From Patescibacteria group bacterium (GTDB lineage: Bacteria > Patescibacteriota > Patescibacteriia > 2-02-FULL-49-11): a stretch of DNA of 62,587 bases. The translations under genes and the position numbers were made by a program. This document shows, piece by piece, positions 19,955-55,096 of the stretch. The notes beneath the pieces are model-generated. The model saw only the letters and a list, made by a program, of their open reading frames with translations. It had not been told where the DNA came from and searched no databases. The number at the start of each line of letters is the position of its first letter. Positions within the stretch are counted from its first letter, which is position 1. The DNA is taken from positions 1 through 62,587 of the forward strand of contig JBFLWV010000010.1 in NCBI GenBank assembly GCA_040757655.1. The letters are read 5' to 3'.

Positions 19955-19971
19955 AATTTTCCAAGTTACCA

Positions 19972-21732: not shown

Positions 21733-21740
21733 GGACAAGC

Positions 21741-26399: not shown

Positions 26400-26482
26400 T
26401 TACTAATCCAAATCCCAAAAACCAAACGAAGAAATAACAACTCAAAACTCAAATCTCAGAACTCAAAGCCATAACGTAGAAC

Positions 26483-26908
26483 TTAGAACTTCTTTTTGCC
26501 TTTCATGGTAAGGAGGCTCGCACTGATCATCTTGCTCAACTGCTCTGCCTCGTCTAATAACGGGGTGATTGTTTCCTTGGTAGATAACTTACTGTCGCGC
26601 AACAGACAAAACCAGTAGAGGGTCTCATTGCAGCTTTTAAGGGAAATTTCGTAATACTTAATGAACTCTCTTTTGGAACTTGAGGATTTCGCTTCTACGA
26701 GATTGGCGCCTATCGAGGTGGCTGATCGCAAGAGCTGGTCGGTGAAAATCGCGTAGATTCTGTCATGAGGAAAATCCTTAACTAACATGATGACATCCAA
26801 TGAAAACCGATAGGCACGGTACTTCACATGAGCTTTGAGATCTGAGCTGTGGTTTTGAGATTTGAGTTCTGACATTTGAGTTGATAATCTTGAATTGTTC
26901 TTTATCAT
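26483..26908 (-). CDS. Four-helix-bundle protein (23S rRNA IVS-protein family)
   Basis: Motifs QLLRSATSIGANLVEA and REFIKYYEISLKSCNETLYWF. Sits inside nested inverted repeat arms. The exact start is uncertain. Confidence 0.8.
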   Translation of the reverse strand: MIKNNSRLSTQMSELKSQNHSSDLKAHVKYRAYRFSLDVIMLVKDFPHDRIYAIFTDQLLRSATSIGANLVEAKSSSSKREFIKYYEISLKSCNETLYWFCLLRDSKLSTKETITPLLDEAEQLSKMISASLLTMKGKKKF

Positions 26909-26941
26909 TTTGCATTTTGGGATTTGGATTTTGGATTAGGG

Positions 26942-28873
26942 TTATTGCTGTTGTGTTGCTGTTTGCGCCCCTCCCGCAGCAGAGGGCGCCCCTTCCTGCT
27001 CCATCGTCTGGTCGAACTGGCGTTTGGCTTCCTCAATCTCCAAAAGCTGCCGAGGATCTGACGTGATGATCTGGTCCTCGGTGTAGGACGCAACCACCTT
27101 GATGGCCGCGTGCTTATTGCCCGCGAAGAAAATACCCTCTCCCACCCCGCTCTCGAGAAGCAGATACCGCTCCCCTTGCGTGAGGAGGAACACTTTTGCC
27201 ACCGCGTCAATGGCAGAAGGCGACTGGCGCAAGAGTATCTGGAGCCCGGAATTGTTCACAATCGCCTGCCCATAAGGGGATCCCAAGAAGTCATTCACAT
27301 CCTGCGTAATGGTGGAGAGGCCCAGGTAGTATTTGCGGCAGCGCTTTGCGAGGGCGTAGATGAATTTTGCAGAATCCTCGTGCTGCATAAGCCACCATGC
27401 CTCGTCAATGACAAGGATGCGTTTTTTAATGCTTGAGCGCACCACGTTCCAGATGAAATTGATGATGGTGTAGATTGCCATTGGACGGAGCTCGTCTTCC
27501 AAATCGCGCACCGAGAATACGACCAGCTGGTTATTGAGGTTAATGTTCGTGCGGTTATTGAGGAGCCCTGCAAACGTACCTTCAGTGTATTTTTTAAGTC
27601 GCAGCGCGATATCGTCGCCGCCTTCCATGCCGCGCAGGATATCCTCAAGGTCAGAGAGCACCGGCATTTCCGCGTGCGAAAGGTCCGAAGAGGGGGTAAT
27701 GTCTTTCTTGGCGTAGGTCTCAAGGATGGCGCGGTCGAGGAGCGAGTCCTCTTGGTGCGTGAGCTCCCCGATCATAATCCGGGTAAGCCCTTTGAGGGTA
27801 ATCACCGCGGAGCGGATGATATCGCCTGCCTTCGTGTCTTCCCCAACGGCACGGGGCAGGTCAAACGGGTTGATTTTGCTGTCAGAATTCAAGGATATGT
27901 TAATATAGGTGCCGCCCACCGCTTGCGCGAGGTATTGGTACTCGCGCTCCGGATCAATGATGATGACTTCCGTGCCGAACATGAGCGAGCGAAGGATCTC
28001 AAGCTTGATGGCATACGACTTGCCTGCGCCCGAGGTGGCAAACACCACCATGTTCGCATTTGGGAGCGAGAAACGGTCAAAAAGGACCAGGGAATTATTG
28101 TGGCGGTTGATGCCATAGAGCACCCCATGGTCGCTTGAGAGCTCCGCGGAAACAAAAGGGAATGACGATGCGGCAGGGGACGTATTCATGTTGAAACTTA
28201 CCCCCAGCTCATCAATGCCAAGGGGAAGCGTTGAATTGAACCCCTGCTCTGACTGCCAGGTGGCGCGCCGCGTAAACACGAGCTTTGATCCAATGAGGCT
28301 CTCCACCCGTTCAGTAAGCTTATTAAGCTCCTTAATGTCCGATGCGTACAAAGTAAGGTACAATGCACATTGGAAGAAGTGCTCTACCCCTTGAGTAATG
28401 TCATCACGCAGCTTTTCAATGTCTTGAAGGGCGGTCTCGCGTACCGGGTCGCGCGGAGCTCCTTTTTCCCGGTCTGCGGCAAGCTGCGCTTCCAGCACGC
28501 CTACTTTGTTCCTTAATTGCTTTAAGATGATTTCAGGATCAATGGGGTAAAAAAACATTCCCACGTCAAAGGTGGCGCTTAAGTCAATGATCGGCTCAAA
28601 CCATCCAACCGACACATAGCGAGGATAGGTGACCACGAACATCGTGCGCAGGAACATCCCCCCCAGTTCCAGATGGTCTGGCTGCACCCGAAGGGAAGAG
28701 GGCGCGATGAAGTCGCGGATGGACACTACCCCTTCCCGGTAGACTTTTTCCGCGCGCAGGAGCTCTTCTGAAGGAAGAGCGCCCTTTTCCACCCGCGCCG
28801 CCTCTCCTTGCGCTCTTGATACCGCTGAAGGAGCCTTTGGGGCGGACGATTTTTTCTTTAAGAAGTTGAACAT
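26942..28873 (-). CDS. virB4: VirB4/TrbE/PrgJ-family T4SS ATPase
   Basis: Walker A FATSGAGKSYAIK and Walker B ILVIDEAWWLM, with an N-terminal VirB4-type domain. The ATG at 28873 is preferred. Confidence 0.85.
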   Translation of the reverse strand: MFNFLKKKSSAPKAPSAVSRAQGEAARVEKGALPSEELLRAEKVYREGVVSIRDFIAPSSLRVQPDHLELGGMFLRTMFVVTYPRYVSVGWFEPIIDLSATFDVGMFFYPIDPEIILKQLRNKVGVLEAQLAADREKGAPRDPVRETALQDIEKLRDDITQGVEHFFQCALYLTLYASDIKELNKLTERVESLIGSKLVFTRRATWQSEQGFNSTLPLGIDELGVSFNMNTSPAASSFPFVSAELSSDHGVLYGINRHNNSLVLFDRFSLPNANMVVFATSGAGKSYAIKLEILRSLMFGTEVIIIDPEREYQYLAQAVGGTYINISLNSDSKINPFDLPRAVGEDTKAGDIIRSAVITLKGLTRIMIGELTHQEDSLLDRAILETYAKKDITPSSDLSHAEMPVLSDLEDILRGMEGGDDIALRLKKYTEGTFAGLLNNRTNINLNNQLVVFSVRDLEDELRPMAIYTIINFIWNVVRSSIKKRILVIDEAWWLMQHEDSAKFIYALAKRCRKYYLGLSTITQDVNDFLGSPYGQAIVNNSGLQILLRQSPSAIDAVAKVFLLTQGERYLLLESGVGEGIFFAGNKHAAIKVVASYTEDQIITSDPRQLLEIEEAKRQFDQTMEQEGAPSAAGGAQTATQQQ

Positions 28874-28887
28874 GAACTTTAATGTAA

Positions 28888-28972
28888 ACCCCAAAATCCA
28901 AAAACCAAAATGATAATCAAGAATTTATAAATTTTGGGCTATCATTTTGCATTTTGGGATTTGGATTTTAAA
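28888..28972. repeat. Miniature palindromic element (caaaatgata ... tatcattttg core)
   Basis: Left arm ccccaaaatccaaaaaccaaaatgataatc; right arm gctatcattttgcattttgggatttggatttt. Confidence 0.8.
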
Positions 28973-28981
28973 TTAGTACCG

Positions 28982-29668
28982 TTATTCTTCCACCTCCATC
29001 TTCTCCATCGCGGGCGCTCTTTCGCTCACCATCACCTCTGGATTGTAGGTCGCATAGAGAAGTTCTATAAGCGACTGGGTATCAAGCTCCACCGCATTCA
29101 AACCCATCGCCTGCAGGCCGCCTCGCAGGTGCGCCACATTCCTATCAAGTGATAAGCGGTACTGCCGGAATTTCTCTTCCTTCATTTTAATAAGTTTGGT
29201 AAGTGAGAATGTTTCGGAGAGTCTGGTAACGAGACTCTTCTGTTTATCAGAAACCGGATTATAGGGAACCGCGACATAGAACCGCTTCGACACAATATCG
29301 CCAAGGCTCACGAGCTCCGTAATGAATTGCCGGTAATCTGCCATCTGAATGCGGAGAAGGTCATTGGACTGCTCCCGTTCGCGCTGTTTCAGGTCGTCAA
29401 GGTACGTATCAATGAGAAAGCGGCGCGACTGAATGATGATTTGCACGGAAAAGGAAAGTGAATTGAGAAACGAAATGTATCCCTGGACCGTGGCCGCCTG
29501 CTCTTCGGGAGATTTGAGCGCAAAGTTCACTGAGGACACGAGGAGTACTGCGCGGAGGCTCCCATCCTTGAGGATAATCGTATTATCACGAACCTCCGCA
29601 ATCGGCAAATACCGCTGGGTTGATGGCGGATGAGTCTTTTTCTTACTGACGCCTGGTTGGATGGACAT
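28982..29668 (-). CDS. Hypothetical T4SS-associated protein resembling a stand-alone VirB4 N-terminal domain
   Basis: The segment LPIAEVRDNTIILKDGSLRAVLLVSSVNFALKSPEEQAATVQGY resembles the N-domain start of VirB4/TraC-type ATPases. It has no Walker motifs. The ATG at 29668 follows aaggaagg. Confidence 0.45.
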   Translation of the reverse strand: MSIQPGVSKKKTHPPSTQRYLPIAEVRDNTIILKDGSLRAVLLVSSVNFALKSPEEQAATVQGYISFLNSLSFSVQIIIQSRRFLIDTYLDDLKQREREQSNDLLRIQMADYRQFITELVSLGDIVSKRFYVAVPYNPVSDKQKSLVTRLSETFSLTKLIKMKEEKFRQYRLSLDRNVAHLRGGLQAMGLNAVELDTQSLIELLYATYNPEVMVSERAPAMEKMEVEE

Positions 29669-29682
29669 ACCTTCCTTAATGT

Positions 29683-29792
29683 AAAAACCAAAATCCAAAA
29701 ATCAAAATGATAGATGATAATCCAAAATATTTGAGGTTATCGTCCCGAAGGGACTCTTTCATTTTGGATTTTGGGATTTGCATTTTGCATTA
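29683..29792. repeat. Palindromic intergenic element with gtccc-gaa-gggac core
   Basis: Arms aaaaccaaaatccaaaaatcaaaatgata and tttcattttggattttgggatttgcattttgcatt. Core at 29742..29754. Confidence 0.8.
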
Positions 29793-30351: not shown

Positions 30352-31650
30352 CTAGTATGCCAGTTTTCGGTTGATGTCCGCAATAGCGTCAAATTCATCT
30401 TTGGTAAACACCGGATGCTTTTTCTTCACGTGCTCCTCGATCACGTGCGCCACGTCCATCCCTTTCTCGAGGCTTTCTGCGCCGACCACCAGATACAGCT
30501 GATGCAAGGGTGATGATTTCCAGGCGAGCACTCCCTCGTTTCTCTTCAAAAGCGATTCATCAGCGAGCAATTCTATTTTTTCCACCACCTTTGCGGCCAT
30601 CATGGGCGCCGTGGCGCCTAAACGACGGAAATCTTCAATCGTCATAGTTTTGAGTTCGTCAATTGGCCCCATCACCCTCCGAAAGGTGCGCACATCCGTG
30701 ACCGTCGAACGTAATTCTGCCGCTGGCGCCTTCGGAGGCGCGACAGGAGGAGAGACTTTGACTGGAGGCGTAACCGCTTGACGAGCCACTTCTGTTATGG
30801 CTTCTGGCTTCTGGCTTCTGGCTTCTGGCTTATAGGATGGATGCACAAACGGCCGCGGTTCCTTGACCACAAGTGACGGCACCTCAAATGGCTTTGCAGG
30901 AGCCGCAGCAACACGAGCAATCGCAGGTCCTCCCCCTTCCTTCTGTGGGACACGCAAAGGCGCGGGAGCTTCTTCTTCTGGTTTCACTGGAGTCACTTTC
31001 ACTCCTCGCACTTCATCTTCAAACGCGCCTCGTCGCTCCTCTATAAACTGGAGAAGCGTCTGCGCGGCTGCATTATCCATATTCACACCTCCCAATTCCC
31101 GCGGCCGCATCAACACCTCTTTTGTTTCCATGAGATCCCTTACGTCTCTGAGTCGAGAAACAATGACCCGCACAAGCCGAGGACGAATCTCTGGGTCAAC
31201 CGGGAGGTTTGCTGTCTTCAAAATTTCATCTGCCTTCTTATTCACGAGCTCGTGGATCTTCTCAATGCGCTCTTTATCGCCCGCCTGACGGTACCCGTCA
31301 ATTTCCTCCTCATCGCCCACATCTACATAATAACGGGCAACGGGCTTCAGAGCCTGCCTAGCGGCCACAGGCGGAGATGCGCGTGCGGGCACGTCTGCAC
31401 GCGCGGGAGGCGTGGTCGGCGATTTCACCGGTGCGCCAACCGGGAGAGGAGCACGTTCGAGACCTATGTGCTTTACGCGATCATTATGAGATGCGCGCGA
31501 CGCATCCCAATCCTCCAGTTTGCCGTTCTTGAGCACCTTGAAACGCCCGTCCGCATCACGGACGACCAGCTCATTCATTGGATTGTGCACCACAGAATCT
31601 GCCATACCGTTACTATGTGTTAAAACTGGTTGCAGTGAACATTTTATCAT
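30352..31650 (-). CDS. Hypothetical Pro/Ala-rich protein containing a 7-bp tandem repeat
   Basis: 432 aa. Its start overlaps the upstream stop in an ATGA arrangement (31647-31650). No motif recognised. Confidence 0.6.
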   Translation of the reverse strand: MIKCSLQPVLTHSNGMADSVVHNPMNELVVRDADGRFKVLKNGKLEDWDASRASHNDRVKHIGLERAPLPVGAPVKSPTTPPARADVPARASPPVAARQALKPVARYYVDVGDEEEIDGYRQAGDKERIEKIHELVNKKADEILKTANLPVDPEIRPRLVRVIVSRLRDVRDLMETKEVLMRPRELGGVNMDNAAAQTLLQFIEERRGAFEDEVRGVKVTPVKPEEEAPAPLRVPQKEGGGPAIARVAAAPAKPFEVPSLVVKEPRPFVHPSYKPEARSQKPEAITEVARQAVTPPVKVSPPVAPPKAPAAELRSTVTDVRTFRRVMGPIDELKTMTIEDFRRLGATAPMMAAKVVEKIELLADESLLKRNEGVLAWKSSPLHQLYLVVGAESLEKGMDVAHVIEEHVKKKHPVFTKDEFDAIADINRKLAY

Positions 31651-32420
31651 GTTTTGAACTTCTCACGAATCCGTGCCTGCTCAACCTGGTACCATTTCTG
31701 CTCGTCATCTAATTTCTTTTCCAGCGATTCAACCAATTTCCTCATCAACCAGTCGGTTTTATTGATGAGTTCCAGGAATATCTCGCATGTCAAGTCTTCC
31801 GGTTGAATCTTGGCTAAAGGAGAATAAAGGACAGTTAAAGGACGATACGTGAAATTATTATCCTTTATCATCCTATATCTTCCTTTATCACCCTGTAACG
31901 CGCGATGAAATTCCCCAAGGTCAGTGCCGATGCTCTCAAAACTCGATCCTGGTCTAGATCTTAAAAACCCATCCTCGGTCATCTCGCGCACATCGCCTTT
32001 CACTTCTTCCAAACTGCCTTGACTGTAACTGATGAAATCGAGATACTCCCGCGTCGTCGCTCGCTTGTAGCCCTCCTCAATGTTCCGCACCACGCTCCTG
32101 GCAGCGTCATCAACCTGTGCTTTCCTGCGATATTCAGATTTCGGCAACGCATCAGTCGTGAGACGAACCAAATAGCGCAGCAATACAGCGTTCGACCACT
32201 GCACCAGGTAGCGATATCCTTCCGGATCCTGCCATACCCGTGATCGCTGTTGCGGACGCTCTGGCTGCGATAATTCCCATAGGGTTTTCATCCGCATGAA
32301 GGCTCCTACTTCGCTAGAATTCAATCCCGCCAAATCACAATGAGGAAAATCATTTGGTGCTTGTGACCAATCGGGATTATGGTCATCAAATTTTGCTATA
32401 AACTTTTTCACGTCCGACAT
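31647..32420 (-). CDS. Extended four-helix-bundle-family protein (257 aa)
   Basis: The core DDAARSVVRNIEEGYKRATTREYLDFISYSQGSLEEVKGDV matches the family motif (aNIaEG...f..fl.iA.gSl.E), with extra N- and C-terminal regions. Confidence 0.65.
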   Translation of the reverse strand: MSDVKKFIAKFDDHNPDWSQAPNDFPHCDLAGLNSSEVGAFMRMKTLWELSQPERPQQRSRVWQDPEGYRYLVQWSNAVLLRYLVRLTTDALPKSEYRRKAQVDDAARSVVRNIEEGYKRATTREYLDFISYSQGSLEEVKGDVREMTEDGFLRSRPGSSFESIGTDLGEFHRALQGDKGRYRMIKDNNFTYRPLTVLYSPLAKIQPEDLTCEIFLELINKTDWLMRKLVESLEKKLDDEQKWYQVEQARIREKFKT

Positions 32421-32483: not shown

Positions 32484-32558
32484 CCACCTGAACTCACCCG
32501 TCTCTAAATCTCCATATGCTAAATGAGAATATTCAAGTTCGCCTGCCTTGCGGCATTC
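32484..32558 (-). pseudogene. Copy 4 (most diverged) of the 3' coding end of the 474-aa gene
   Basis: Translates ECRKAGELEYSHLAYGDLETGEFRW, versus ECRKAGDEEYAHLAYGDLETGEFKW in the intact gene. Confidence 0.7.
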
Positions 32559-32817
32559 ACCCCGTTAGAGAAAGGAAACGCTTCAAGCGATTTTTAAGAT
32601 ACCGCTTCCCCATCCCAGTCTTCAGATATTTTTCCCGAACTCGCGCATCATGGTCATTAATGCAAGCTTCATAGTAAATCAACTGAAATGGACCCCTGCC
32701 TGTTGTCGATGTTACCTTTCCTTCATTGTGCTCCCTGAAGCGTTTCCGTAGATCGCCCGAAGAACCTGTATACCATTTCCTATCCTTTAAACTTTGCAAA
32801 ACGTACGTATAGACCAT
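32557..32817 (-). CDS. GIY-YIG nuclease superfamily protein (stand-alone, 86 aa)
   Basis: VYTYVL...KWYTGSSGDLRKRFREHNEG is the GIY-(10)-YTG...R..EH signature. Confidence 0.85.
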   Translation of the reverse strand: MVYTYVLQSLKDRKWYTGSSGDLRKRFREHNEGKVTSTTGRGPFQLIYYEACINDHDARVREKYLKTGMGKRYLKNRLKRFLSLTG

Positions 32818-32943
32818 AAACTTACTTCTCTAGCCCGTTAAAACTATTCCTCTTAATGCTCTCTACGCGACAATGTCATAAATAATATATGCCAGATATA
32901 TCTCGTGACTCAGCTCAACTTTTAACGGGCTCTAACGGGGTAA

Positions 32944-33045
32944 ATTCCACTTAAACGTCCCTGTCTCCAAATCCCCCCGCCTAAATCTCTGCAAGAAAAT
33001 TGGGCGGGCGTCGGTTAATTTTTAACGTTCTATCAAAATATGTTT
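32944..33045 (-). pseudogene. Copy 3 of the 3' coding end of the 474-aa gene (tail variant beta)
   Basis: Near-identical to 33693..33795. Translates KHILIER*KLTDARPIFLQRFRRGDLETGTFKWN. Confidence 0.75.
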
Positions 33046-33069
33046 CGGATTATCCACTGTGCCCGTACC

Positions 33070-33165
33070 TTGACAAAAAATTCATACGTGCTATACTTTT
33101 TTTGCCTTGCTAAGGCAAGGCGGAACCAAATTTTCCTCGGGTAACACCGAGGAACTTTTTATTTC
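33070..33165 (+). ncRNA. Predicted ~60-nt transcript (promoter + two hairpins + terminator) convergent on NYN gene 1
   Basis: TTGACA (33070-33075)-16 nt-TATACT (33092-33097). Then hairpin gccttgc-taag-gcaaggc, then ttcctcgg-gtaaca-ccgaggaa followed by ctttttattt. Confidence 0.55.
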
Positions 33166-33677
33166 ATCAACTCAAATTCATTCCGCAGTTTCTTTAAATC
33201 AATAAACTTCGCCTGTTGCACGAGATCCAGTGCGACACTCCCTTTCGTGGACATGACTACGCATCGTTTGCCATGCGCTTTAAGAAATTTGAGTAAAAAT
33301 GCAAAATCGCTGTCACCGGACAATAAAATGAATGACTGATAATCGAGAAGCGTATGAACCGCGTCAATGGTAAGCTCAACATCAAGATTGCCCTTATGGA
33401 ATCCTCCTTCATCGCGCAACTGATCCCTGATAAACTTCACCTTCTTTGTACGAACAGTATACCCTATCAAATCGAGAAAATCGAGAAAACGTCTCTGCTT
33501 ATCCGATGTGGGGTCATACGCGGTATAGAAATAACAGCGATGAAGTTCGGCTTCGCGTGCGAAGTAAACAAGCAACTTTTGAAAATCAATGCGCCAACCA
33601 AGCCTCTTTTGGGAATGATAAATATTAGAGGCATCAATGCATATTATTGTCTTTCCATGAACAAAGGTGGAAATCAT
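33159..33677 (-). CDS. NYN-domain (LabA/DUF88, PIN-like) putative RNase, copy 1
   Basis: Motifs IICIDASNIYH and ILLSGDSDFAFLLKFLKAHGKRCVVMS. The ATG at 33677 lies 11 nt after the stop of tail copy 2. Confidence 0.85.
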   Translation of the reverse strand: MISTFVHGKTIICIDASNIYHSQKRLGWRIDFQKLLVYFAREAELHRCYFYTAYDPTSDKQRRFLDFLDLIGYTVRTKKVKFIRDQLRDEGGFHKGNLDVELTIDAVHTLLDYQSFILLSGDSDFAFLLKFLKAHGKRCVVMSTKGSVALDLVQQAKFIDLKKLRNEFELMK

Positions 33678-33688
33678 AAATACGTTTA

Positions 33689-33952
33689 TTACGCATTCCA
33701 CTTAAACGTCCCGGTCTCCAAATCCCCCCGCCTAAATCTCTGCAAGAAAATTGGGCGGGCGTCGGTTAATTTTTAACGTTCTATCAAAATATGTTTCAAA
33801 AACGCTAAGAAATACTTCGGTGCAGCAGGATCTTTCAAAAATTCCTGCACGGGCGTTGCATGCAACGCCCCTACATTATCCCCTGATTCCTGATTCATAA
33901 TTCTTGATTCCCGCTTCTCAAGTTGATGTCTCCAATACTTCACGAATCGTTC
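33689..33952 (-). pseudogene. Copy 2 of the 3' coding end of the 474-aa gene (constant part + in-frame TAA + tail variant beta)
   Basis: ERFVKYWRHQLEKRESRIMNQESGDNVGALHATPVQEFLKDPAAPKYFLAFLKHILIER*KLTDARPIFLQRFRRGDLETGTFKWNA*. The first roughly 170 bp is close to identical to 35770..35945. Confidence 0.8.
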
Positions 33953-33983
33953 TGGTCGGCTATCCATACACGGATGTCCCCAC

Positions 33984-34068
33984 TTGACAAACATTTACAA
34001 TACTATATACTGTAAATGTGATTTGACTCTGGAGTGCCTTGTAAAAGGCAGCTCCAGATTCTTTTTTA
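33984..34068 (+). ncRNA. Predicted ~50-nt transcript convergent on NYN gene 2
   Basis: TTGACA (33984-33989)-16 nt-TATACT (34006-34011). Then hairpin ctggagtgcc-ttgtaaaa-ggcagctccag followed by attctttttt. Confidence 0.55.
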
Positions 34069-34575
34069 TCTCGCAATTTCCGTCTTAAGTTTCCGAAAAT
34101 CGACAAACTTCGCAACTTCCAACAACTCTCGCGCTATATGACCGCGGGTGGACATCACGATCACTCTTTTCCCTTTTTCCTTCACGCGCTCCAATACCGG
34201 CGCGAAATCACTGTCGCCAGAGACAAGAATAGCCGTATCATAACGATCTGCGAGCTCCATCATCTCTAACGCGAGTTCAATATCAAGGCTTCCCTTCCGT
34301 TTGCTCGTGCCATCACTTGAATTGATTTCCTTAATCACTTTTGTGCGTACGATGTAGCCGTTGATCTCCAGCATGTCCAGAAACTTGCGCTCGCCAACCT
34401 TGTTGTCATTGAATGCTGTGTACGCGAAGCACTTCACCGAAACACCGCACTCATGCTTAAAATACGCCATTAATTTCTCATACCCAACGCTCCATCCGAG
34501 CGTACGTCTCGTGAAAAAGACGTTCGCCACATCAATGAATACGTATACTCGCCCTTGAATGTATTTTGAAATCAT
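34066..34575 (-). CDS. NYN-domain (LabA/DUF88, PIN-like) putative RNase, copy 2
   Basis: Motifs VFIDVANVFF and ILVSGDSDFAPVLERVKEKGKRVIVMS. The ATG at 34575 lies 11 nt after the TGA of tail copy 1. Confidence 0.85.
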   Translation of the reverse strand: MISKYIQGRVYVFIDVANVFFTRRTLGWSVGYEKLMAYFKHECGVSVKCFAYTAFNDNKVGERKFLDMLEINGYIVRTKVIKEINSSDGTSKRKGSLDIELALEMMELADRYDTAILVSGDSDFAPVLERVKEKGKRVIVMSTRGHIARELLEVAKFVDFRKLKTEIAR

Positions 34576-34586
34576 ATCATTTACAT

Positions 34587-34742
34587 TCACGCATTCCACC
34601 TGAATTCTCCCGTTTCCAGATCGCCGTATGCCAAGTGTGCGTACTCCTCATCTCCGGCTTTGCGGCATTCATTGCTTAAGGTCAAAACCGCCAGTTTCGC
34701 GCTTTCTTCAGTTAATTTTAAACGATCAATCGGGATATACCT
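34587..34742 (-). pseudogene. Copy 1 of the 3' coding end of the 474-aa gene (tail variant alpha, last 47 codons)
   Basis: Translates IDRLKLTEESAKLAVLTLSNECRKAGDEEYAHLAYGDLETGEFRWNA*. Near-identical to 35619..35765. Confidence 0.85.
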
Positions 34743-34756
34743 CAAGATTATTAACA

Positions 34757-34846
34757 TTGACAAAAAAAATCATAATGCTATGCTGTCAATGTACCTCCCT
34801 TATCTAAGGCTCTCTCGAGTACAGGTAACGGGGGTGTTTTTATTAT
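34757..34846 (+). ncRNA. Predicted ~55-nt transcript convergent on the DUF3800 gene
   Basis: TTGACA (34757-34762)-16 nt-TATGCT (34779-34784). Then a structured segment ending in gggggtgtttttatt, about 10 nt before the DUF3800 stop. Confidence 0.45.
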
Positions 34847-34855
34847 GAACAGTTC

Positions 34856-35467
34856 TTATAAGTGCAATAATATCTTCTCTTTATTCATGATCATTTCGTG
34901 ATAGTGGGGATCGCCCCGCTCATACTCTCTAAAAATACTCCCCGCAATCATATCTGCTATCTGGATCATCGCATTGTTCCGAGAACGTTGCTGCCTGATT
35001 TTTCTAACCACATTCTTGCTCATATACTGTTTAAGCACCGCATTGAATTCTCGCCGATGGATTTGAGCTGACGCTTCGTCAATGACGAGGACAGATTCAA
35101 CTATCGGCGGATCGTTATCATAAAACAATCTTCTCACTGCTTCGCAGTAGAGCTGATGGGGATGGAACTTCAGTGCTGGCGCGGTAAGTTCACGTTTATC
35201 AACAACGACTGCCTTATAGCGGATTAACCGCTCTGATAACGTACGCAAAAACGCTTCGCGAAATGTACGCTTGCATCGTGAAAACTTAAACTCAAAATCC
35301 TGCGCCAATCGCAATTCCAACCTTAACCTTTCCATTGTAATCTCAATCTCCTTCGCCTCGCATCCAAGAAACACCGCTGCCACTACAAAAAATCTCGAGG
35401 ATCCGCGTTCAAACTTGAAACCACAATCACTTGCTTCGTCTATCCAGAGATATGATATTGTCTCCAT
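34856..35467 (-). CDS. DUF3800-family protein
   Basis: N-terminus YLWIDEASDCGFKFERGSSRFFVVAAVF and C-terminal IQIADMIAGSI are typical DUF3800 motifs. The ATG at 35467 is preferred. Confidence 0.7.
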   Translation of the reverse strand: METISYLWIDEASDCGFKFERGSSRFFVVAAVFLGCEAKEIEITMERLRLELRLAQDFEFKFSRCKRTFREAFLRTLSERLIRYKAVVVDKRELTAPALKFHPHQLYCEAVRRLFYDNDPPIVESVLVIDEASAQIHRREFNAVLKQYMSKNVVRKIRQQRSRNNAMIQIADMIAGSIFREYERGDPHYHEMIMNKEKILLHL

Positions 35468-35618
35468 AATTATAGCACAATAATCTATCTCATATCCTAG
35501 CTGCAATTTCCTTAAGTCATACAAGCATCACTCACTCGCGATCGCGAGTCTTTGATTCCTTTCGGATTTAAGCCCTTCAGACACATGTCTGCGTAAGTCC
35601 GCGCAAGTCCGCGTTTAC

Positions 35619-40514: not shown

Positions 40515-41050
40515 CATAACAAATCCAAATCTAATCCAAATCCCAAAATCCAAATACCAAAATGATATCTGTGAATCCAAAATTATCGACGGCCTTTCAT
40601 GGTAACGATACTTGCCCCAATAATTCTGGCAAACTCATTAGCCTCGCGAGAGAAGGCTTCAACTTCGTCTCGATGTGAGACGCTCACTGTTTCCTGGAGC
40701 ACCATGAGCCAGTAGATCGTCTCATTGGCTGATTTAAGTGCAATCTCGAAAAAATGAATGTAATCTCTTTTTGAACCTGAACCTTTCGCCTCTACGACGT
40801 TCGCACCAATTGAACCTCCACTGCGGATTACTTGATCGACGATTGACCACAGCAGTCTATTCTCACCTTTAATCCTCTCCCCAAGCTTGATGATATGCAC
40901 GGTGAATTGGATCAACCTTCTGATGAAATCCTTTTTGAATTGTTCTCTATCATTTTGGGATTTGGGATTTGGGTTTTGGATTGGCATAGAGGCTGTGGGG
41001 ATTTGGAATTTTATTTGACATTGGGATTTGGAAATTGGGATTTAATGCGT
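40515..41050 (-). mobile_element. Full-length palindromic element carrying a four-helix-bundle gene
   Basis: Left arm aaatccaaatctaatccaaatcccaaaatccaaataccaaaatgata; right arm tatcattttgggatttgggatttgggttttggatt, plus a second arm set. A miniature derivative lies at 19972..20103. Confidence 0.7.
40583..40987 (-). CDS. Four-helix-bundle protein (23S rRNA IVS-protein family)
   Basis: Motifs QVIRSGGSIGANVVEAKGSGSKRDYIHFFEIALKSANETIYW. The N-terminus MPIQNPNPKSQND is encoded by the repeat arm. Confidence 0.85.
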   Translation of the reverse strand: MPIQNPNPKSQNDREQFKKDFIRRLIQFTVHIIKLGERIKGENRLLWSIVDQVIRSGGSIGANVVEAKGSGSKRDYIHFFEIALKSANETIYWLMVLQETVSVSHRDEVEAFSREANEFARIIGASIVTMKGRR

Positions 41051-41116
41051 TGATGCTGAGATTTAAGTAGGTGTATAGAGTTTAGGGTTTAGAGTTTAGG
41101 ATTTAGGATTTTTCAA

Positions 41117-46739: not shown

Positions 46740-46809
46740 AGGGCAATTACTAATTGTGTTAAATTCCAAATCCCAATTCCATTTTGCATTTTGGGATTTG
46801 GATTTTGGA

Positions 46810-49800
46810 TTAATACTTATTTTGTTGGTACCCGCACGTTCCTCCAGCGTCACAATCGCTATCAATAACGCACGGCTGCGGATCCCCTGCGGGAGAGTTT
46901 GAACAGTACTTTGCCGTGATGATCGTATCAGGTCCTCTGCCAGTCTCATGCAGCCCCACGCAGCCCGCTTCAGGATCCAGCACGCCGTTGCACTCACCCT
47001 CCTGGCTCGAAATTTTATCTTTTGGCGCATAGAGGAAATCGCATGCAACCACCGAACAGGTGCCGCCAGGACCGGGGGGAGTTGCCGCAGTACTGCACTG
47101 CGCATCGGTGGTGCAGGTGAAGGGAGTGGCACCTTCACTGCATACCTTTTGTCCATACACAAGCGTTTTATTGCACCCCTCTGGCAGCCGCGGATCCTGA
47201 TACTCGGTGCAGGTGGATACTTGTGGACTGCACTTTGCCACTGCATTTGAGCATGTTCCCCTACTTCCTGGTCGAGCAAAATCAAGACAATCATTATCGC
47301 TCACGCAGAGATTCCTTTCCTTATACGTCACGCCATTGGCGTCAGCGGTGAGATTTTTGCTTCTTCCCCCAATGCAGTGACCCAAAGGACGGCACGTCGC
47401 GCCTGCAGGACACCTCGTACCCACGTTGGCAGCAGTACAACTCCGATACGGCGCGTTGGAACACACACTCGTCACGGTGGGACAAGGAATAGAAGAGCCG
47501 ATCTCATACCACGTGGTCACGGTGCCTTCTGTCTTATATTCACAGACATAGCCGGTAGGATCTTTAAATACTTTCCTTGACTGGCTCGCATCAGTGCCGG
47601 TCCATGTGGCGCAATATTCTTCGGGCAGTGTGCACAGGCTCGTACTCTTCCCTACCTCGTCGCTGAATGTGTCTGGATCAACCATCACGATCGTATCCGC
47701 AAACGTGCTCGTGGCAACCCCGCTCGCGGAATTCCAAAATGCCACGCTTGCCTGCCCCAGCAGGGTACATCCTGCCTGCGTGTTCGTGCATGAGGCATCT
47801 ATGGAAGGAATGAGGTAGGTGAGCGTATCCGCAGGCACGGTGAGCGCTGAGGCGGGGCTATAGATGCGCCCTGCGTCAGTGGAGTTATAGAATGTCTGCT
47901 CAGCAGGATTGCTTGAATTCTGCGTGTCAATCAAGACCTCGCATCCCACAAACCGTTCAGGACATAGCGTAGAAAATTGTTTGAAATAGAAGGTTGTATC
48001 TGTCCCTCCTTGCCGGTACGCGGCGCAGTTGAGCTGGGCGCCTATCACTGTGGCTATTGGCGGAACTTGACTATTCTGATCGCAGGTCTCTGGCGTATAC
48101 CAACTATCCTTGATCGCGTACACCTGCGCAGTTTGCAGGACCACATTGTCAAGGTAGGTATAGGCGAAAGGACTCATCCTCACTTGCGCAGGCCCGGCGC
48201 TTGTTGCAGTAAACGGCCCAAGCGTATATGAGTTCCACGATGTGGTTACATTAGCCGCGTAGGACGCGGGAGTGGCCACCGGCACTTGTCCGGTGTTATC
48301 AACAAGTGAAACAGTTATCGTGCCCGCGGTATCAGCCCGCGCCCAGAATTTCACGTTATAGAGCTTGCCGGTTTCAAGAGAAAACCCAGGCCGGTAGGCA
48401 TTCAGTCCAACAATTTTGAGCGAATGGTTATTCAACACCGCTGCTTCATTGGAAACGGAAAGCGTGGTGGCCGCATCAGGATGCCACGGCTCATACGATC
48501 CGCTCTCGAACGTATCAGAGAAAAATGTCTGTACATTGCCGCCATCGCCTCTCCGATACTCACGGCAACCGGCAGAGAAGGGTGCGCATGTGGTGCTATA
48601 GGTGGGAATTGCCTTATATACGCAATTATTTCCCTGCATGGTTCCCCGATGGCTCGTACACCACGCGGCTGCGGTCTCGAGGAGCGTACGCCGCAGGGGA
48701 TGGCAATCGTCTGATGCGATGATCACTTTTGAGAAATAACGGTAGTAGTAATTAAGGTTGCCATCAATAAACTGCCGACAATCAAGATCGGGGGTGGGGG
48801 AATTGAAATCATTTTCACAATCAATGCCATCAGGGCTCCGCGACGGATCTACTTGCTTTTGTCCTGTCACCGCGGGCGCGGTATTCGGGCCGCCGCTGGG
48901 AATCAATGTCCACACCTTCAGCTGAAAACCCGTCGTATCTGATCCTTCCCACGTGTAGTAGGGCGCCTCGCCGCTCCCGAGCTGTTCGCATTGCATGAGC
49001 GCCGTGTAGTACTCCTTGCCCTCGCCTCCCCGCGCCACCTCATCAAGGTTCGTGAATTCATCGCACCCCACGTCTTGCGCAGGACAGGATTGAGCGGTAG
49101 CGGGTATGAAATTAACCCCAGGACTAAACCCAATGGCTGCTTCAAAATTCGTTTCCCTCTGTTCAAACTTTTTATATCCCACGCACTCTGCCGGACACTC
49201 ATCATTCCAATCCGTGACATTGCCTTCCACATCAATAGAGGCCATGGTTGGCTTTGCAGGAATTGCCACTTGCAATTCCGTCGGATCAAGCGGCGTATAA
49301 AGGTTACATCCTACATACTTACTCTTTTCCTCAAGCGACGCCGCGGGATCTGAAGAACCAATGCATGATTCGGCAGTGTTATTTAAGTATACCGACTCAG
49401 TTTCTCGCTCATTAAAATTCCGGTAAGAATCAGTGCCCGCGATGACATTATTAAGCAGCGTAGTGTATTCCGCGGGTGTGAGGAGGTGTTTCGCCTCATC
49501 CTTATGCCGTATGCGAACATAATCTTTGCACCCCACTGCGTTCGGCTCTTTACACGCAGCTTCAGCCATATTTAAGGCGCTTTGGTTTAAGAAATAATTA
49601 TCTGCTGCTGCCACGCTATTCACCCATCCTCCCGCATCCCTGCGTCTTGTGTAGCGGCGGCACCCTTCGGACGCCGTTCGCGTACAACCCTCTGCATCAG
49701 TGGTATTCATGAGGAAGCTTACTGCTTGCTCTGATCCTGTTTTTTTAAGCTCCAAACATGAGGCAAACTGCGCAGGACACGACTCGCCCAAGGTCCACAC

Positions 49801-52141: not shown

Positions 52142-52272
52142 AAAATCTTTATATCACAATGAGGAGAATGACGAGGAGAGAGAATAATTTACGACGAGAA
52201 GAAAAATGCACCATATCCTATAAATCCAAATCCCAAAAACCAAAATCCAAAATGATAATAAATAATGTAGAA

Positions 52273-52650
52273 TTATCGTCTATCCTTCATGGTAAGTATG
52301 CTTGCGCCGATTATCTTCGCAATCTCCACGTTTTCACGGTACAAAACTTCAATTTCGTTCCGCAACCCGCTCTCCACGGTTTCGCGCAGAACCATTAACC
52401 AATAGGTCGTCTCATTCGCGGATTTGAGCGCAATTTCAAAATAGTGGATGTAGTCTTTCTTGGAACCAGAACCTTTCGCTTCCACGACATTCGCGCCGAT
52501 CGAGCCGCCGCTGCGAATGGACTGATCCACGAGCGACCATAAGAGTTTATTGCGCTCTTTGACCTTTTCTCCCAATCTAATGAGGGCTATCGTAAACCGT
52601 ATGAGCCTGCGGATAAAGTCCTTTTTGAATTGTTCTTTATCATTTTGCAT
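52273..52650 (-). CDS. Four-helix-bundle protein (23S rRNA IVS-protein family)
   Basis: Clear sequence similarity by eye to the protein at 40583..40987 (QSIRSGGSIGANVVEAKGSGSKKDYIHYFEIALKSANETTYW). Flanked by inverted repeat arms. Confidence 0.85.
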   Translation of the reverse strand: MQNDKEQFKKDFIRRLIRFTIALIRLGEKVKERNKLLWSLVDQSIRSGGSIGANVVEAKGSGSKKDYIHYFEIALKSANETTYWLMVLRETVESGLRNEIEVLYRENVEIAKIIGASILTMKDRR

Positions 52651-52676
52651 TTTGGGATTTGGATTTTGGATTAGGG

Positions 52677-53330
52677 TTATTGCCCTTGCTGCTGCACCGT
52701 CTGCTCTTGTTCTTTCAGCGTTTCCTGGTACATCTGCATCAGGGTCGCGTCGTCAATCTGCTTGAGCTGTTCTTCCGTCACCTGGCCGGTCTGGAGGAGA
52801 AGTTTCCGAAGTTCGCTCGGCGTCATGCTTGAGAGGTCTGGAGGAGGCGCAGGATTCTCGCTGCTCGGAGCAGGGGGGTTGAGTTCATTAAACTGCGGTG
52901 ATGAATCTGCCTGCGCAGGCGCACTCGTGCGGCATTCCGTGCCCTTCGGGCAATTCGGATCATTATTGGAATCAATTTCCACCTTGTCGGTATACGTATC
53001 GCCATCTGAATCTTTAAGATAAGGCGAGGTGCCATACACATTCAGCTCATCCCAGTCAGAGAGCCCATCGCTGTCCGTGTCCTTTGTTTTTAATTCTTCG
53101 CCACTTGCTGAAAACTGCGCTCCCGCTTGCGGGATAGCGCTCACGCTCCCTGAACCTTCTTGATTGGCAGAACCCGTGGAGAGCTCCAAATCGCGCCAAA
53201 TCTTAAAACCCCCTAAGGAGAGCGCTAAAAACCCAAAAAATAAAATAGACCCAAATAATACTTTTGGGCTTATCCCTTGAGAAGACTTACCTTCTTCGCT
53301 TATGTTTTGCGGCAAAGAGGAGTTAGCCAT
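52677..53330 (-). CDS. Secreted protein with thrombospondin type-3-like calcium-binding repeats
   Basis: TM/signal helix, then DTDSDGLSDWDELNVYGTSPYLKDSDGDTYTDKVEIDSNNDP. Confidence 0.65.
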   Translation of the reverse strand: MANSSLPQNISEEGKSSQGISPKVLFGSILFFGFLALSLGGFKIWRDLELSTGSANQEGSGSVSAIPQAGAQFSASGEELKTKDTDSDGLSDWDELNVYGTSPYLKDSDGDTYTDKVEIDSNNDPNCPKGTECRTSAPAQADSSPQFNELNPPAPSSENPAPPPDLSSMTPSELRKLLLQTGQVTEEQLKQIDDATLMQMYQETLKEQEQTVQQQGQ

Positions 53331-53416: not shown

Positions 53417-54295
53417 CTATATTGCACCATATTTTGTGGTATAAAGCATAGTCCAATCATCAAGAGAAAGCTCTCCCGGACGCCTCTCTATAAACGCGGA
53501 TGAACGCGGATTACTACGCAGATCAACGCTGATGTTGATTGTGTTTAAAATCTTCCTACGAGGGAAGCGAAAGGCAGGTTTGATAAAATGTAAAAACGTT
53601 TCACTCTTGATGCCGTTCCTCCGCGCTAAAACGAACGAGTCGTGTAAGTCAATCTTCACTAATGCGCTCTCCACGGCAGGCATCGGCCAAAATGCGGAAC
53701 GCGGGATGAAGCGTACCATCTCCACTCTGCCGAACCACTGCGCCACCACAGAGAGGAGAGACATATACGGCGGGCGCGCAGCAAGGCGCTCGGCGACTTC
53801 CTTCTGGAGGATGAGCACTAAACGTTTTGGGAGGCGATCATCCTTCAACACGGATGAAAAAAAATCCGAAGTAATGGAATATGGAAGACTCGCTACTATA
53901 GATAACCGTTTCACCTTGTGACAATGTAACAATGTAACCATTTGACTATTCAACCATCCGATGAAGTCTCTCTCTATCACTTCCACATTCTTAATCTTTT
54001 GACGCGCCAATTCACTTTTTAAAAATTGTACCAACTTCGGCTCAATCTCCACCGCTGTCACGCGCCGCGCCTGCTTCGCCAATCCAAACGTTAACGCCCC
54101 AAACCCCGGTCCTACTTCAATGACTTCGTCATCTAGGTGGAGGCGCGCGGCATGGATCGTCTCTCGCGCCACCTTTTCATCAATGAGAAAATTTTGGCCG
54201 CGATCATGGCTGGGATGAAAACGGTATTGCGCACAAATTTTTTTAAGTTCGCCTGCGGAGTAAAGAGAAGACACAGGATTAAACTCAAATCTCAA
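53417..54295 (-). CDS. rsmA: 16S rRNA (adenine1518/1519-N6)-dimethyltransferase RsmA/KsgA
   Basis: GQNFLID and VIEVGPGFGALT motifs. The C-terminal region contains a CGCGGAT/CGCAGAT repeat insertion. Confidence 0.9.
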   Translation of the reverse strand: MRFEFNPVSSLYSAGELKKICAQYRFHPSHDRGQNFLIDEKVARETIHAARLHLDDEVIEVGPGFGALTFGLAKQARRVTAVEIEPKLVQFLKSELARQKIKNVEVIERDFIGWLNSQMVTLLHCHKVKRLSIVASLPYSITSDFFSSVLKDDRLPKRLVLILQKEVAERLAARPPYMSLLSVVAQWFGRVEMVRFIPRSAFWPMPAVESALVKIDLHDSFVLARRNGIKSETFLHFIKPAFRFPRRKILNTINISVDLRSNPRSSAFIERRPGELSLDDWTMLYTTKYGAI

Positions 54296-54382
54296 ATGTC
54301 AAAGCTCAAAACCATATCTTAAATCTCAAAGCTATCGGGTTTTGAGTTGTGGTTTTGAGATTTGCGCTTTGAGTTTTGAGAT
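54281..54382. repeat. Palindromic simple-repeat element overlapping the rsmA start and tsaC end
   Basis: Left arm aaactcaaatctcaaatgtcaaagctcaaaaccatatcttaaatctcaaagc; right arm gggttttgagttgtggttttgagatttgcgctttgagttttgagat. Confidence 0.75.
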
Positions 54383-55093
54383 CGGGATAGGACCGCGCCT
54401 CAATACGTCCATCTCACCGTCTAGGTGTACTTGAATAATGGTTGATGGCTTCCTCCGTGGCAATGTTCCCGCATCGATAATCAAATCCGGCCGATGCTTC
54501 CTCCTTTGGAATTCTCTTACCACTGCGGCGGCGCTATAGAGATTTTCCCCTCCGGATATGTTCGCGCTCGTGGCGATTATTGGCCTACCTAATCCTCGTG
54601 CCAATTTCTGTGCAATCGGATGCGAGGAAATACGGAGAGATAACGCACCGCCGACACCCTCACCCTCGCCTCCTGGCGTCAGGAGGCGAGCCTCTCCCTT
54701 TTTAGGGAGAGGAACTTGTTGCCTTTGAGTCTCTCCCCCTAATAAGGGGGAGAATCGAAAAAATCCACTGGATTTTTTCGATGAGAGGGTGTGTCGTTTC
54801 AATGGCAACACCAACGACAACGGCCCCGGCCAAAACGTATGTGCGAGTTTGCGAGCGAGGGGGAAAAACTCCACATACTGCGCTGCTATTGCATGCGTAG
54901 ACACAATAACCGGCAATTGTTTCTCTGCCGGCCGCTGTTTGATGCGCCTCACTTTCTCATGCACCCGCGGATTGGTCCAGTCGCCGCCTAAACCGTAAGA
55001 AGTTTCGGTGGGATAGACCACCACGCCTCCCTTACGAAGCACTGTTACAGCAATCTGTATCATGTTGTGTTCGCTCACTGAAACCGCCTGCAT
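54332..55093 (-). CDS. tsaC: L-threonylcarbamoyladenylate synthase TsaC/YrdC family, with a ~50-aa hairpin-derived insertion
   Basis: GGVVVYPTETSYGLG and ATSANISG motifs. The start is at 55093 or 55063. Confidence 0.85.
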   Translation of the reverse strand: MQAVSVSEHNMIQIAVTVLRKGGVVVYPTETSYGLGGDWTNPRVHEKVRRIKQRPAEKQLPVIVSTHAIAAQYVEFFPLARKLAHTFWPGPLSLVLPLKRHTLSSKKSSGFFRFSPLLGGETQRQQVPLPKKGEARLLTPGGEGEGVGGALSLRISSHPIAQKLARGLGRPIIATSANISGGENLYSAAAVVREFQRRKHRPDLIIDAGTLPRRKPSTIIQVHLDGEMDVLRRGPIPISKLKAQISKPQLKTR

Positions 55094-55096
55094 AAT

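Follow-up and report, generated by a model that had tools for sequence, protein, structure and literature searches.

Why should a gene of the family best known from 23S rRNA intervening sequences (IVSs) sit inside a long inverted repeat between two genes of a protein-coding operon? The question is raised by positions 40515-41050 of a 62,587-nucleotide stretch of DNA from a Patescibacteria group bacterium (contig JBFLWV010000010.1, assembly GCA_040757655.1; the whole stretch is referred to here as the window), where an initial annotation had pointed out a small four-helix-bundle gene enclosed by arms of degenerate short repeats, together with three similar elements elsewhere in the window. We designate the four elements A to D in order of position, that at 40515-41050 being C. 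Our analysis suggests that 40515-41050 is probably one copy of a family of mobile, IVS-like cassettes, which would be copied between operon junctions, decay to solitary hairpins and have their stem cut in read-through RNA.

Helix-bundle genes enclosed by heptamer arms

All four reported helix-bundle open reading frames (ORFs) lie on the minus strand, at 22799-23179 (A), 26483-26908 (B), 40583-40987 (C) and 52273-52650 (D). They match PF05635 (23S_rRNA_IVP, "23S rRNA IVS protein" or "S23 ribosomal protein"), whose fold is common to Avd, with E-values of 1.8e-15, 2.7e-25, 1.7e-18 and 1.2e-16, respectively; scores of 57.5-89.1 bits place all four above the Pfam gathering cut-off of 33.8, and the curated threshold of TIGR02436 ("four helix bundle protein"; cut-off, 24 bits) is likewise passed by all four, with 71-96 bits (E 3.9e-23 for C). 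The products of A, C and D have 126, 134 and 125 aa; B is listed with 141 aa, with an internal Met at 26875 as the likely start. The proteins are basic (pI 9.5-9.75; 9.75 for C). An exact-protein look-up of the C product found no record, and that of D is 87% identical to the protein P0002, which is placed at another junction. Named homologues of the window genes come from Portnoybacteria, Doudnabacteria, Kaiserbacteria and Omnitrophota.

The AlphaFold2 monomer model of the D product predicts four helices (2-33, 35-59, 64-91, and 94-121) at a predicted local distance difference test (pLDDT) score of 95.3. Its best Foldseek match is PDB entry 2RLD, a Bacteroides "S23 ribosomal protein family" member with five chains (TM score, 0.77-0.89; 32% identity), which also matches the B product in phmmer (E 5.4e-15). 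Further matches are 2GSC (Xanthomonas Xcc0516; TM score, about 0.7) and Avd of the Bordetella phage diversity-generating retroelement (DGR; 4DWL and 8UB7), with TM scores of about 0.7-0.79 at 11-13% sequence identity.

The arms of C form an inverted repeat of 50 nt that is 78% complementary in a repeat search. Read on the gene strand, the 5' arm (40933-40982, minus strand) consists of A/C-rich heptamers, for which Tandem Repeats Finder reports period 7, and holds codons 2-18; in the minimum free energy (MFE) fold it pairs with a U/G-rich 3' arm (40533-40582, minus strand), whose end lies about 20 nt short of the 1150-aa gene's start codon. In the other three elements, also on the minus strand, the arms measure 42-61 nt and are 72-82% complementary. 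The 5' arm of A (23161-23202) pairs with 22750-22798 (inverted repeats of 41-42 nt, 76%). Element B extends over 26391-26953, with inner CTCAAAA-type arms at 26829-26882 and 26439-26467 and an inverted repeat of 61 nt, and element D over 52205-52698, with arms at 52629-52672 and 52223-52266 (44 nt, 82%) that pair in the MFE fold. Three arm types can be told apart, with the sequences ...CCCAATGTCAAATAAAATCC (A type), ...ACTCAAATGTCAGAACTCAAA (B type) and ...AAATCCCAAAATGCAAAATGATA (C/D type); within each lie the start and opening codons of the gene subtype to which it belongs.

The arms pair when folded in context; the failure to pair that the initial annotation had named first among its refuting observations is thus not seen. 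MFE folds of the gene strand with its flanks contain 86 (A, spanning 22686-23238), 79 (B), 55 (C) and 35 (D) long-range pairs joining the 5' and 3' flanks, and for each element none of 2000 composition-preserving shuffles reached the observed arm complementarity (z 6.6-11.5). Blastn self-comparison was too insensitive for inverted repeats with such degenerate arms. As RNAduplex energies of 145-nt flanks proved a poor statistic (background median, -39.5 kcal/mol), we counted the MFE pairs that enclose an ORF. Their median was 59.5 for 26 helix-bundle ORFs, all of which had at least 22, versus 15 for 214 control ORFs of 90-180 aa from the same loci (Mann-Whitney p 1.6e-13). Period 7 or 14 dominates the Tandem Repeats Finder output in the window, and across 93 sequences 229 arrays have period 7, against at most 114 for any other period. 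Heptamer arrays typically comprise 2-5 units.

Each gene lies in sense orientation between the cistrons of an operon: A between the genes for a 426-aa protein and a DsbA-like protein, B between a VirB4-like ATPase and p216, C between 1644-aa and 1150-aa proteins, and D between p217 and p119 plus a 1645-aa protein. The initial annotation, which had described four co-oriented genes of the rRNA IVS-protein family between A/C-rich arms and their T/G-rich complements, with the first codons encoded by the arm and the whole forming a long stem between operon cistrons, was thus accurate down to the arm sequences that it quoted. It overlooked that the arms belong to genome-wide families of heptamer hairpins, mostly gene-less, and are not private to these genes.

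Copies at different junctions

Comparison within the window and with relatives points to mobility. The window, which has the look of a Candidate Phyla Radiation (CPR) genome, carries the housekeeping genes for ClpB, RecG, LeuRS, KsgA, Sua5 and TsaD along with type IV pilus and type IV secretion system (T4SS)-like genes, and a metagenome scan with its VirB4-like ATPase retrieved 80 related loci (68-85% identity; 1.02 Mb, mostly metagenomic contigs) that share the operon p432-PrgI-VirB4N-VirB4C-p216-...-p426-DsbA. Only 14 helix-bundle ORFs occur in these 80 operons, in few genomes (five in L018, three in L024) and at differing junctions; in most of the relatives the junctions are shorter than 20 nt. 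In the relatives, all complete copies are enclosed in a long-range stem with heptamer-array arms, and the heptamer varies by locus (AAACTCA, GAATAAC, AAAATGC, AATTTCC and others); the cassette design is conserved, and the arm sequence is not. All 19 distinct copies in CPR loci are on the operon strand. When only those heptamer arrays are counted that lie over 250 nt away from every helix-bundle gene, their density is 4.7 times higher in gene-carrying loci (0.43 versus 0.09 per kb; p 6e-4).

The sites themselves differ between close copies. In L084/L085, a metagenome-assembled genome (MAG) from NCBI, a gene 87% identical to that of D lies between giant1645 and p224, where the window has an empty hairpin (46760-46815), and the p217 junction of L084, the site of D in the window, holds no helix-bundle gene. 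Window D and L084 have an identical 5' terminus of about 55 nt, TAATCCAAAATCCAAATCCCAAAATGCAAAATGATAAAGAACAATTCAAAAAGGA, and that of another relative, L086, is nearly identical; roughly the first 33 nt of this terminus are found again in window B, where they belong to the outer arm, and at 46.8 kb in the empty hairpin. Each of these five occurrences is at a different junction. Between window D and the L084 copy, which are at non-orthologous sites, dS is 0.64, whereas three flanking orthologue pairs of the same two genomes give 1.33-1.66; the copy at the non-orthologous site is therefore younger than the split of the hosts. The corresponding dN/dS of 0.11 indicates that the helix-bundle protein is under purifying selection. 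The fixation at identical sites that the initial annotation had named as incompatible with mobility is largely not seen, since most sites vary. The exception is C itself: L086 has a cassette at the giant1644/p1150 junction, the same junction as in the window, with an ORF 76% identical to that of C.

Element C also has a deleted counterpart at a third site. A 141-nt hairpin between two pilin-like genes (19965-20105, minus strand; dG -37.8, z -4.1) matches C at 62 of its 5' 67 nt (about 21 codons) and at 61 of its 3' 69 nt (the last codons and the stop); 323 nt of the ORF are missing, and the remainder is about 90% identical. The hairpin is a deleted copy of C, and at least some of the hairpins without a gene have thus arisen by deletion from elements that carried one. 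It is one of at least 12 gene-less hairpins that these arm families form in the window outside the four elements, mostly at operon junctions.

Elements are, moreover, nested. B lies inside a D-type hairpin, whose outer arms (26907-26941 and 26405-26425, minus strand) retain, on the 5' side, the first 26 nt of a D-type ORF. The 3' side of A (22676-22798, minus strand) is a compound or nested site in which its own arm is followed by remnants of B-type (AACTCAA) and D-type (AAATCC) 3' arms. Upstream of C stands the remnant of an A-type 5' arm (40990-41050, minus strand); it was recognized by comparison with element A and the hairpins at 4305-4574 and 14562-14646 and contains, out of frame, the initial codons of the A-type gene (ATGTCAAATAAAAT). 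A further array, TAGGGTT repeated five times (41076-41111), adjoins C; it equals (TTTAGGG)n, the plant-type telomere unit, and is probably just another heptamer variant.

Homologues in other phyla

The gene-in-heptamer-arms design is not lineage specific. A tblastn search of PLSDB found homologues on 34 plasmids, of which twelve were examined. Eleven of these lie between pairing inverted heptamer arrays inside operons, in Cyanobacteriota, Bacteroidota, Chloroflexota, Spirochaetota and Bacillota, and 11 of the 12 are co-oriented with the downstream gene. Their arms are (TAATTCG)4/(TTACGAA)4 in Dolichospermum, (AATTCGC)4/(GCGAATT)4 in Nostoc punctiforme, (TTAGTGA)~18 in Bernardetia, (AATCCCC)6(AATCGTA)4 in Planktothrix, (TCACTGG)13 in Euhalothece and TTTTAGA/TCTAAAA in Gloeocapsa; plasmids of Chlorohelix, Chondrinema, Treponema, Monoglobus and Pseudanabaena likewise have inverted heptamer arms. 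When a genome collection was scanned with a 22-nt arm motif, the only matches were a Doudnabacteria MAG and hairpins of Chitinophaga japonensis, which are gene-less and have arms almost the same as those of the window. A link of this kind is also found in Xanthomonas: in a supplementary table, Rehm et al. (2015) give a GGGAATC array as "overlapping the start codon" of XCC0516, adjoining bccP. XCC0516 is the protein of PDB 2GSC and a member of the same family.

Most plasmid copies lie inside operons, at junctions such as helicase/methyltransferase, DrmD/MmeI, resistance-nodulation-division (RND) adaptor/permease, hsdS/hsdR, csx2/cas1 and DUF1156/HEPN. Cassettes in defence operons are found on the plasmids of Dolichospermum, Chlorohelix, Planktothrix, Monoglobus, Gloeocapsa and Pseudanabaena (L087, L090, L091, L094, L096 and L098). 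They may be the reason for the reported cas- or defence association of the family and may explain "four helix bundle" genes counted as defence associated.

A more general hypothesis, which we put forward tentatively, is that PF05635 proteins and inverted heptamer arrays together make up a cross-phylum class of elements, in which the pentameric protein would bind its cognate array as RNA or single-stranded DNA (ssDNA) and be needed to create, copy or maintain the hairpins. If so, one protein-driven system would lie behind rRNA IVSs, the short tandemly repeated repetitive (STRR) sequences of cyanobacteria, the GGGAATC pairs of Xanthomonas, the in-frame heptamer arrays of CPR bacteria described below, and the helix-bundle genes in restriction-modification (R-M), CRISPR, DISARM and efflux operons.

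Proposed mechanism

The cassette, as we read it, is a gene for a basic four-helix-bundle protein of about 125 aa, with its 5' end (start and first codons) and its 3' untranslated end within the inverted heptamer arms, that lies in sense orientation within the short intercistronic spacers of host operons. Sequence comparison shows such cassettes to be copied to new junctions and also into the loops of hairpins already present, so that nested elements result; they are held under purifying selection for a time and later decay by internal deletion, leaving the gene-less heptamer hairpins that fill operon junctions of this genome. The cassette has no evident promoter of its own and would be transcribed by read-through of the host operon. 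In the transcript, the arms would zip into an imperfect stem of about 30-60 bp that loops the cassette out as a side branch and rejoins the host cistrons. Looping-out would make the insertion tolerable between cistrons, as it does for an rRNA IVS, and by the same likeness the stem would be a likely substrate of a double-strand-specific RNase, e.g., RNase III. Copying might proceed by recombination or gene conversion between arms, through a hairpin-specific transposase supplied in trans, or by an activity of the helix-bundle protein itself. Hairpin-specific transposases do occur in this ecosystem, though they are rare (two in 1.1 Mb, one of them a gene in L084 resembling a transposase of repetitive extragenic palindromes [REPs], or RAYT).

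Several observations weigh against this scenario. First, the enclosing-pair control has a high background, since 35% of control ORFs reach 20 pairs. Second, the arms bear no sequence sign of selection on an RNA stem: transition-type oppositions on the sense strand comprise 27 G·U versus 29 A·C, so that G·U is not in excess, and 121 of the 177 arm mismatches are transversions. Arm complementarity, as read from sequence, may then be a by-product of a DNA-level origin, function or mechanism. Third, the elements encode no transposase, recombinase or reverse transcriptase, none was found among the window ORFs scanned, and no direct repeat indicative of a target-site duplication was seen beside the shared termini at the five sites, where degenerate repeats blur the boundaries. 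Fourth, the L086 cassette at the junction of C implies that some copies are long-lived, and the purifying selection (dN/dS 0.11) could reflect usefulness to the host as readily as a selfish role. Finally, we infer mobility from sequence comparison only, and read-through, stem formation and RNase III cleavage by analogy. The possibly mobile IVS-like element of the initial annotation is therefore upheld in part: the design holds up, and so does mobility, for which presence/absence at orthologous junctions, the younger copy away from the orthologous site, the deletion derivative found at a third site and nesting all speak; the RNase III-type processing sites that it suggested stay putative.

Alternative explanations

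Shine-Dalgarno-like motifs are almost absent upstream of window genes (start regions of 21 genes), and the distance from the end of a heptamer 3' arm to the next start codon is often no more than about 15-20 nt; because of these two features, the hairpins may also have a host-level role in translation initiation or mRNA punctuation. Taken further, this becomes an alternative that we regard as possible but unlikely, namely, that the system serves host regulation. Ring-shaped pentameric proteins would bind heptamer RNA or ssDNA in the manner of the trp RNA-binding attenuation protein (TRAP), each paralogue with its own heptamer, and the hairpins would act in cis as punctuation of operon mRNAs (stability, processing and start-codon accessibility); each gene would be autoregulated through the array that covers its own start codon, in a genome without Shine-Dalgarno sequences. 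The basic charge of the proteins and their fold, that of pentameric 2RLD, of 2GSC and of Avd, which scaffolds RNA in the DGR ribonucleoprotein 8UB7, are in line with this alternative, and the invariant polar residues Q43, R46, S50, N54, E57, E80 and W84 suggest a putative binding site. Arrays of typically 2-5 units, mostly four in Xanthomonas (PMC4692102), would suit it as well, as would the start regions and the purifying selection just described. Each gene subtype also travels with its own arm type, and the same heptamers occur in trans in gene-less hairpins and coding genes; yet common descent of the whole element would account for this pairing equally well. The hairpins are dispensable, since in most relatives these operons have tight junctions and lack both hairpins and helix-bundle genes, and the deletion derivatives and nested copies resemble the decay of an element rather than designed regulation.

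The pattern of arm mismatches, with no RNA-specific bias, is what would be expected if the arms were DNA-level structures, i.e., ssDNA hairpins recognized by a trans-acting HUH/Y1 transposase of the IS200/IS605 or RAYT kind, with the helix-bundle gene as a passenger and the empty hairpins as counterparts of REP doublet-forming hairpins (REPINs) or MITEs (miniature inverted-repeat transposable elements). A gene between inverted repeats accompanied by many solo hairpins is indeed the RAYT/REPIN design, and at the junction where the window has D, L084 has a RAYT-like Y1 ORF inside outer heptamer arms. This ORF (165 aa; 3487-4292, at the p217/giant1645 junction) has the motifs NHLHFI and YIHNNP, matches PF01797 weakly (E 2e-3) and is flanked on both sides by a REP-like palindrome, GGTTCAATCT..AGATTGAACC, the whole lying within the outer arms. 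A second Y1 gene, in L040 (816-1355; PF01797 E 2.4e-6), is flanked by the palindrome TTTATAAATCTTTAGATTTATAAA. We nevertheless consider this explanation doubtful. Only these two Y1 genes were found in about 1.1 Mb and none in the window (tblastn), the L040 copy has no heptamer arms, neither a conserved cleavage tetranucleotide nor a target motif was seen, and the presence of helix-bundle cargo in at least six phyla would be left unexplained.

Among the long simple repeats of many bacteria, heptamers are the most frequent, and it has been proposed that they arise by slippage (PMC4679880, PMC4692102). The hairpins could accordingly be intergenic microsatellites born of replication slippage in which helix-bundle genes merely happen to lie, and many window hairpins are gene-less. 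Such a coincidence is highly improbable, given that all 26 tested helix-bundle ORFs have enclosing arms, set against the median of 15 pairs for other small ORFs, that 11 of 12 homologues in other phyla have the same design with unrelated heptamers, and that the start codon lies inside the array, copies at different sites have common termini and a deletion derivative exists.

Candidate phyla are rich in DGRs. The idea that the genes are DGR accessory (Avd) genes targeting the neighbouring giant surface proteins, prompted by the structural likeness to Avd and the adjacent giant surface-protein genes, was rejected as the least credible of all because no reverse transcriptase domain was found in any sizeable window ORF scanned (template/variable repeat pairs were not searched for separately), PADLOC gave no match on the window, the nearest structures are the non-DGR members 2RLD and 2GSC, and copies also occur in T4SS, R-M, CRISPR and efflux operons.

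We therefore retain the mobile IVS-like cassette as the most probable origin of 40515-41050.

Other features of the window

The remaining gene-less hairpins can be ordered by arm type. Of D type are a hairpin at the VirB4N/VirB4C junction (28880-28975; inverted repeat of 48 nt, 77%; dG -26.5, z -5.1) and one at the LeuRS/Sua5 junction (55091-55187; dG -35.6, z -9.5), whose loop matches that of 28880-28975 in reverse orientation; the hairpin at the giant1645/p224 junction (46760-46815), where L084/L085 hold a complete cassette, has a D-type 5' terminus. B-type hairpins are found at the DsbA/pilin junction (21740-21845; dG -41.1, z -7.5), at 24598-24697 (inverted repeat) and at the Sua5/KsgA junction (54284-54380; inverted repeat of 40 nt, 80%). 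An A-type hairpin at 14562-14646 was detected by inverted repeats, and so was a heptamer hairpin at 6305-6426, upstream of PilB. A subclass has a GC-rich tip: hairpins at 8600-8697 and upstream of LeuRS (57851-57943), both detected by Tandem Repeats Finder, at the PrgI/VirB4N junction (29677-29791; inverted repeat) and in the p152/VirB4N spacer of L004 carry the loop hairpin GTCCCGAC...GTCGGGAC or GTCCC..GGGAC. The tip may be the original spacer hairpin or another small cargo.

A-type arms at 4305-4574 (dG -105, z -5.7) surround a 215-nt structured non-coding insert (4329-4543), with CCCCGCAC-type stems that recur at 843-959 and 14668-14710. Neither the hairpins nor the insert had a real match in Rfam at gathering or permissive thresholds, and the insert is possibly a small RNA of a new kind or another cargo.

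The VirB4-like ATPase is encoded by two genes, for a TraC_F_IV-like N part and a P-loop C part, both in the window (26942-28894 and 28982-29698) and in all 80 relatives (L004-L083). A hairpin as the cause of this split was considered and rejected, as the N and C parts are separate in 80/80 relatives, whether a hairpin is present or not.

A fifth ORF with a PF05635 domain (31647-32420, minus strand; 257 aa; domain at residues 74-155, E 6.8e-13) has no obvious arms. It contains an internal stretch of GATAAAG-type heptamers and overlaps the start of p432. Its homologues in L011, L014 and L018 lie between arms, that of L018 between the two VirB4 parts.

Heptamer arrays also occur in frame within housekeeping genes. 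They are perfect or near perfect, about 30-36 nt (10-12 codons) long and A/C-rich on the coding strand, and are found in the genes for LeuRS (55762-55794, 56433-56465, 56968-57003 and 57111-57140), TsaD (61962-61994, 61550-61584 and 62205-62235), a DUF2079 protein (61056-61088), p432 (30798-30831) and a DsbA-like protein (22045-22075). They encode low-complexity loops such as KLKTQNSKLKT, ENPKSKIQNPKL and KPEARSQKPEA, and several reuse the arm heptamers AAACTCA, AAAATCC and AATTTCC. The LeuRS orthologue of L084 has a different low-complexity insert in the same place, and Doudnabacteria uvrC (L001) encodes AKFQNPNPKM.

A second repeat family has units of about 10 nt (TCTGCGTTTA/ACGCAGATGA), both intergenic and intragenic, at 1354-1397, 2613-2649, 22193-22256, 35587-35613, 53493-53511 and 55450-55489; one encodes ADQRRSNTQINADDSEN at the LeuRS C terminus, which is conserved in the L084 orthologue. 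Upstream of tRNA-Arg(GCG) (14827-14898), the only tRNA-Arg gene called there by ARAGORN and Rfam, 14651-14826 holds a duplicate of its 5' half with a hairpin of about 43 nt in the D-loop, followed by more tRNA-like fragments. A small group of genes of the mobile or defence type lies between the T4SS-like and giant-protein operons (32557-35524) and comprises those for a stand-alone GIY-YIG protein (86 aa), two NYN-domain RNases and a DUF3800 protein; an AbiEii toxin gene lies at 17.7 kb (17705-18385).

Comparison with known systems

The closest parallel is the ORF-bearing IVS of 23S and 16S rRNA genes, as in Leptospira, Coxiella burnetii and CPR rRNA genes. In both, a gene of the same protein family lies between complementary ends that fold into a long stem; RNase III cuts the bounding stem of IVSs with this ORF (PMC4990558), and CPR rRNA insertions carry 23S_rRNA_IVP ORFs (PMC11270868). 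Sense orientation in a (highly) transcribed unit, sporadic distribution and the lack of an encoded transposase are further shared traits (PMC4990558, PMC11270868). The host of the IVS is, however, an rRNA helix, whereas Rfam finds no rRNA in the window and all copies there lie between protein-coding genes; the window cassettes also have heptamer-array arms, several subtypes per genome, nesting and many gene-less derivatives. Excision by RNase III has been demonstrated for rRNA IVSs, whereas the cassettes described here are known from their sequence. Neither the origin nor the function of rRNA IVSs with a conserved ORF is settled (PMC4990558). Since the same cassette occurs far more often between ordinary operon cistrons, the rRNA IVS may be one particular form of a more general element.

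Heptanucleotide repeats have been catalogued in other bacteria, as cyanobacterial STRRs, GGGAATC in Xanthomonas, GGGGA(C/T)T in Nostoc and TAACTGA in Beggiatoaceae. Like the window arms, they are tandem 7-nt units, mostly in 2-5 copies, located between co-oriented genes and often arranged as convergent stem-loop pairs with rapid turnover among close relatives (PMC4692102, PMC4679880). In those studies they are free-standing sequences (G-quadruplexes or translational signals) with no link to a gene, whereas here they appear as the arms of a gene cassette and its deletion products. The STRR, GGGAATC and TAACTGA repeats were catalogued without a source, and such arms and decay products would provide one. 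The hairpins explain variable operon spacer lengths in candidate phyla and may be a hazard in metagenome assembly.

REP/REPIN-RAYT systems resemble the cassettes in having a single small gene between inverted repeats and many extragenic solo hairpins of the same repeat, and in L084 a RAYT-like gene occupies one heptamer hairpin. The cassettes differ in encoding a four-helix bundle without HUH or Tyr motifs, in several gene copies per genome, and in arms of tandem heptamers, a REP being a single imperfect palindrome with a conserved tetranucleotide. An HUH/Y1 gene flanked by inverted REPs was not found in the window by tblastn, and Y1 genes were seen only in the relatives L084 and L040. As in transposons and their MITEs, a full element and an internally deleted copy share both termini (C and 19965-20105) and several copies are present per genome; unlike them, the cassettes encode no transposase, no target-site duplication was recognizable at them, and their termini are fuzzy because the repeats are degenerate.

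Avd shares the fold, small size and basic charge of the helix-bundle proteins. It differs in sequence, 2RLD being closer, and no reverse transcriptase was found near the cassettes. We know of no role outside DGRs for PF05635, a very large family that includes Avd. Heptamer arrays as the constant partner of its genes thus offer a concrete candidate ligand. In the literature, we found no paper that links the PF05635 family to heptamer repeats or intergenic hairpins, and the heptamer-repeat papers do not mention the family. Judged from sequence, the cassette at 40515-41050 would represent the IVS design outside rRNA genes.

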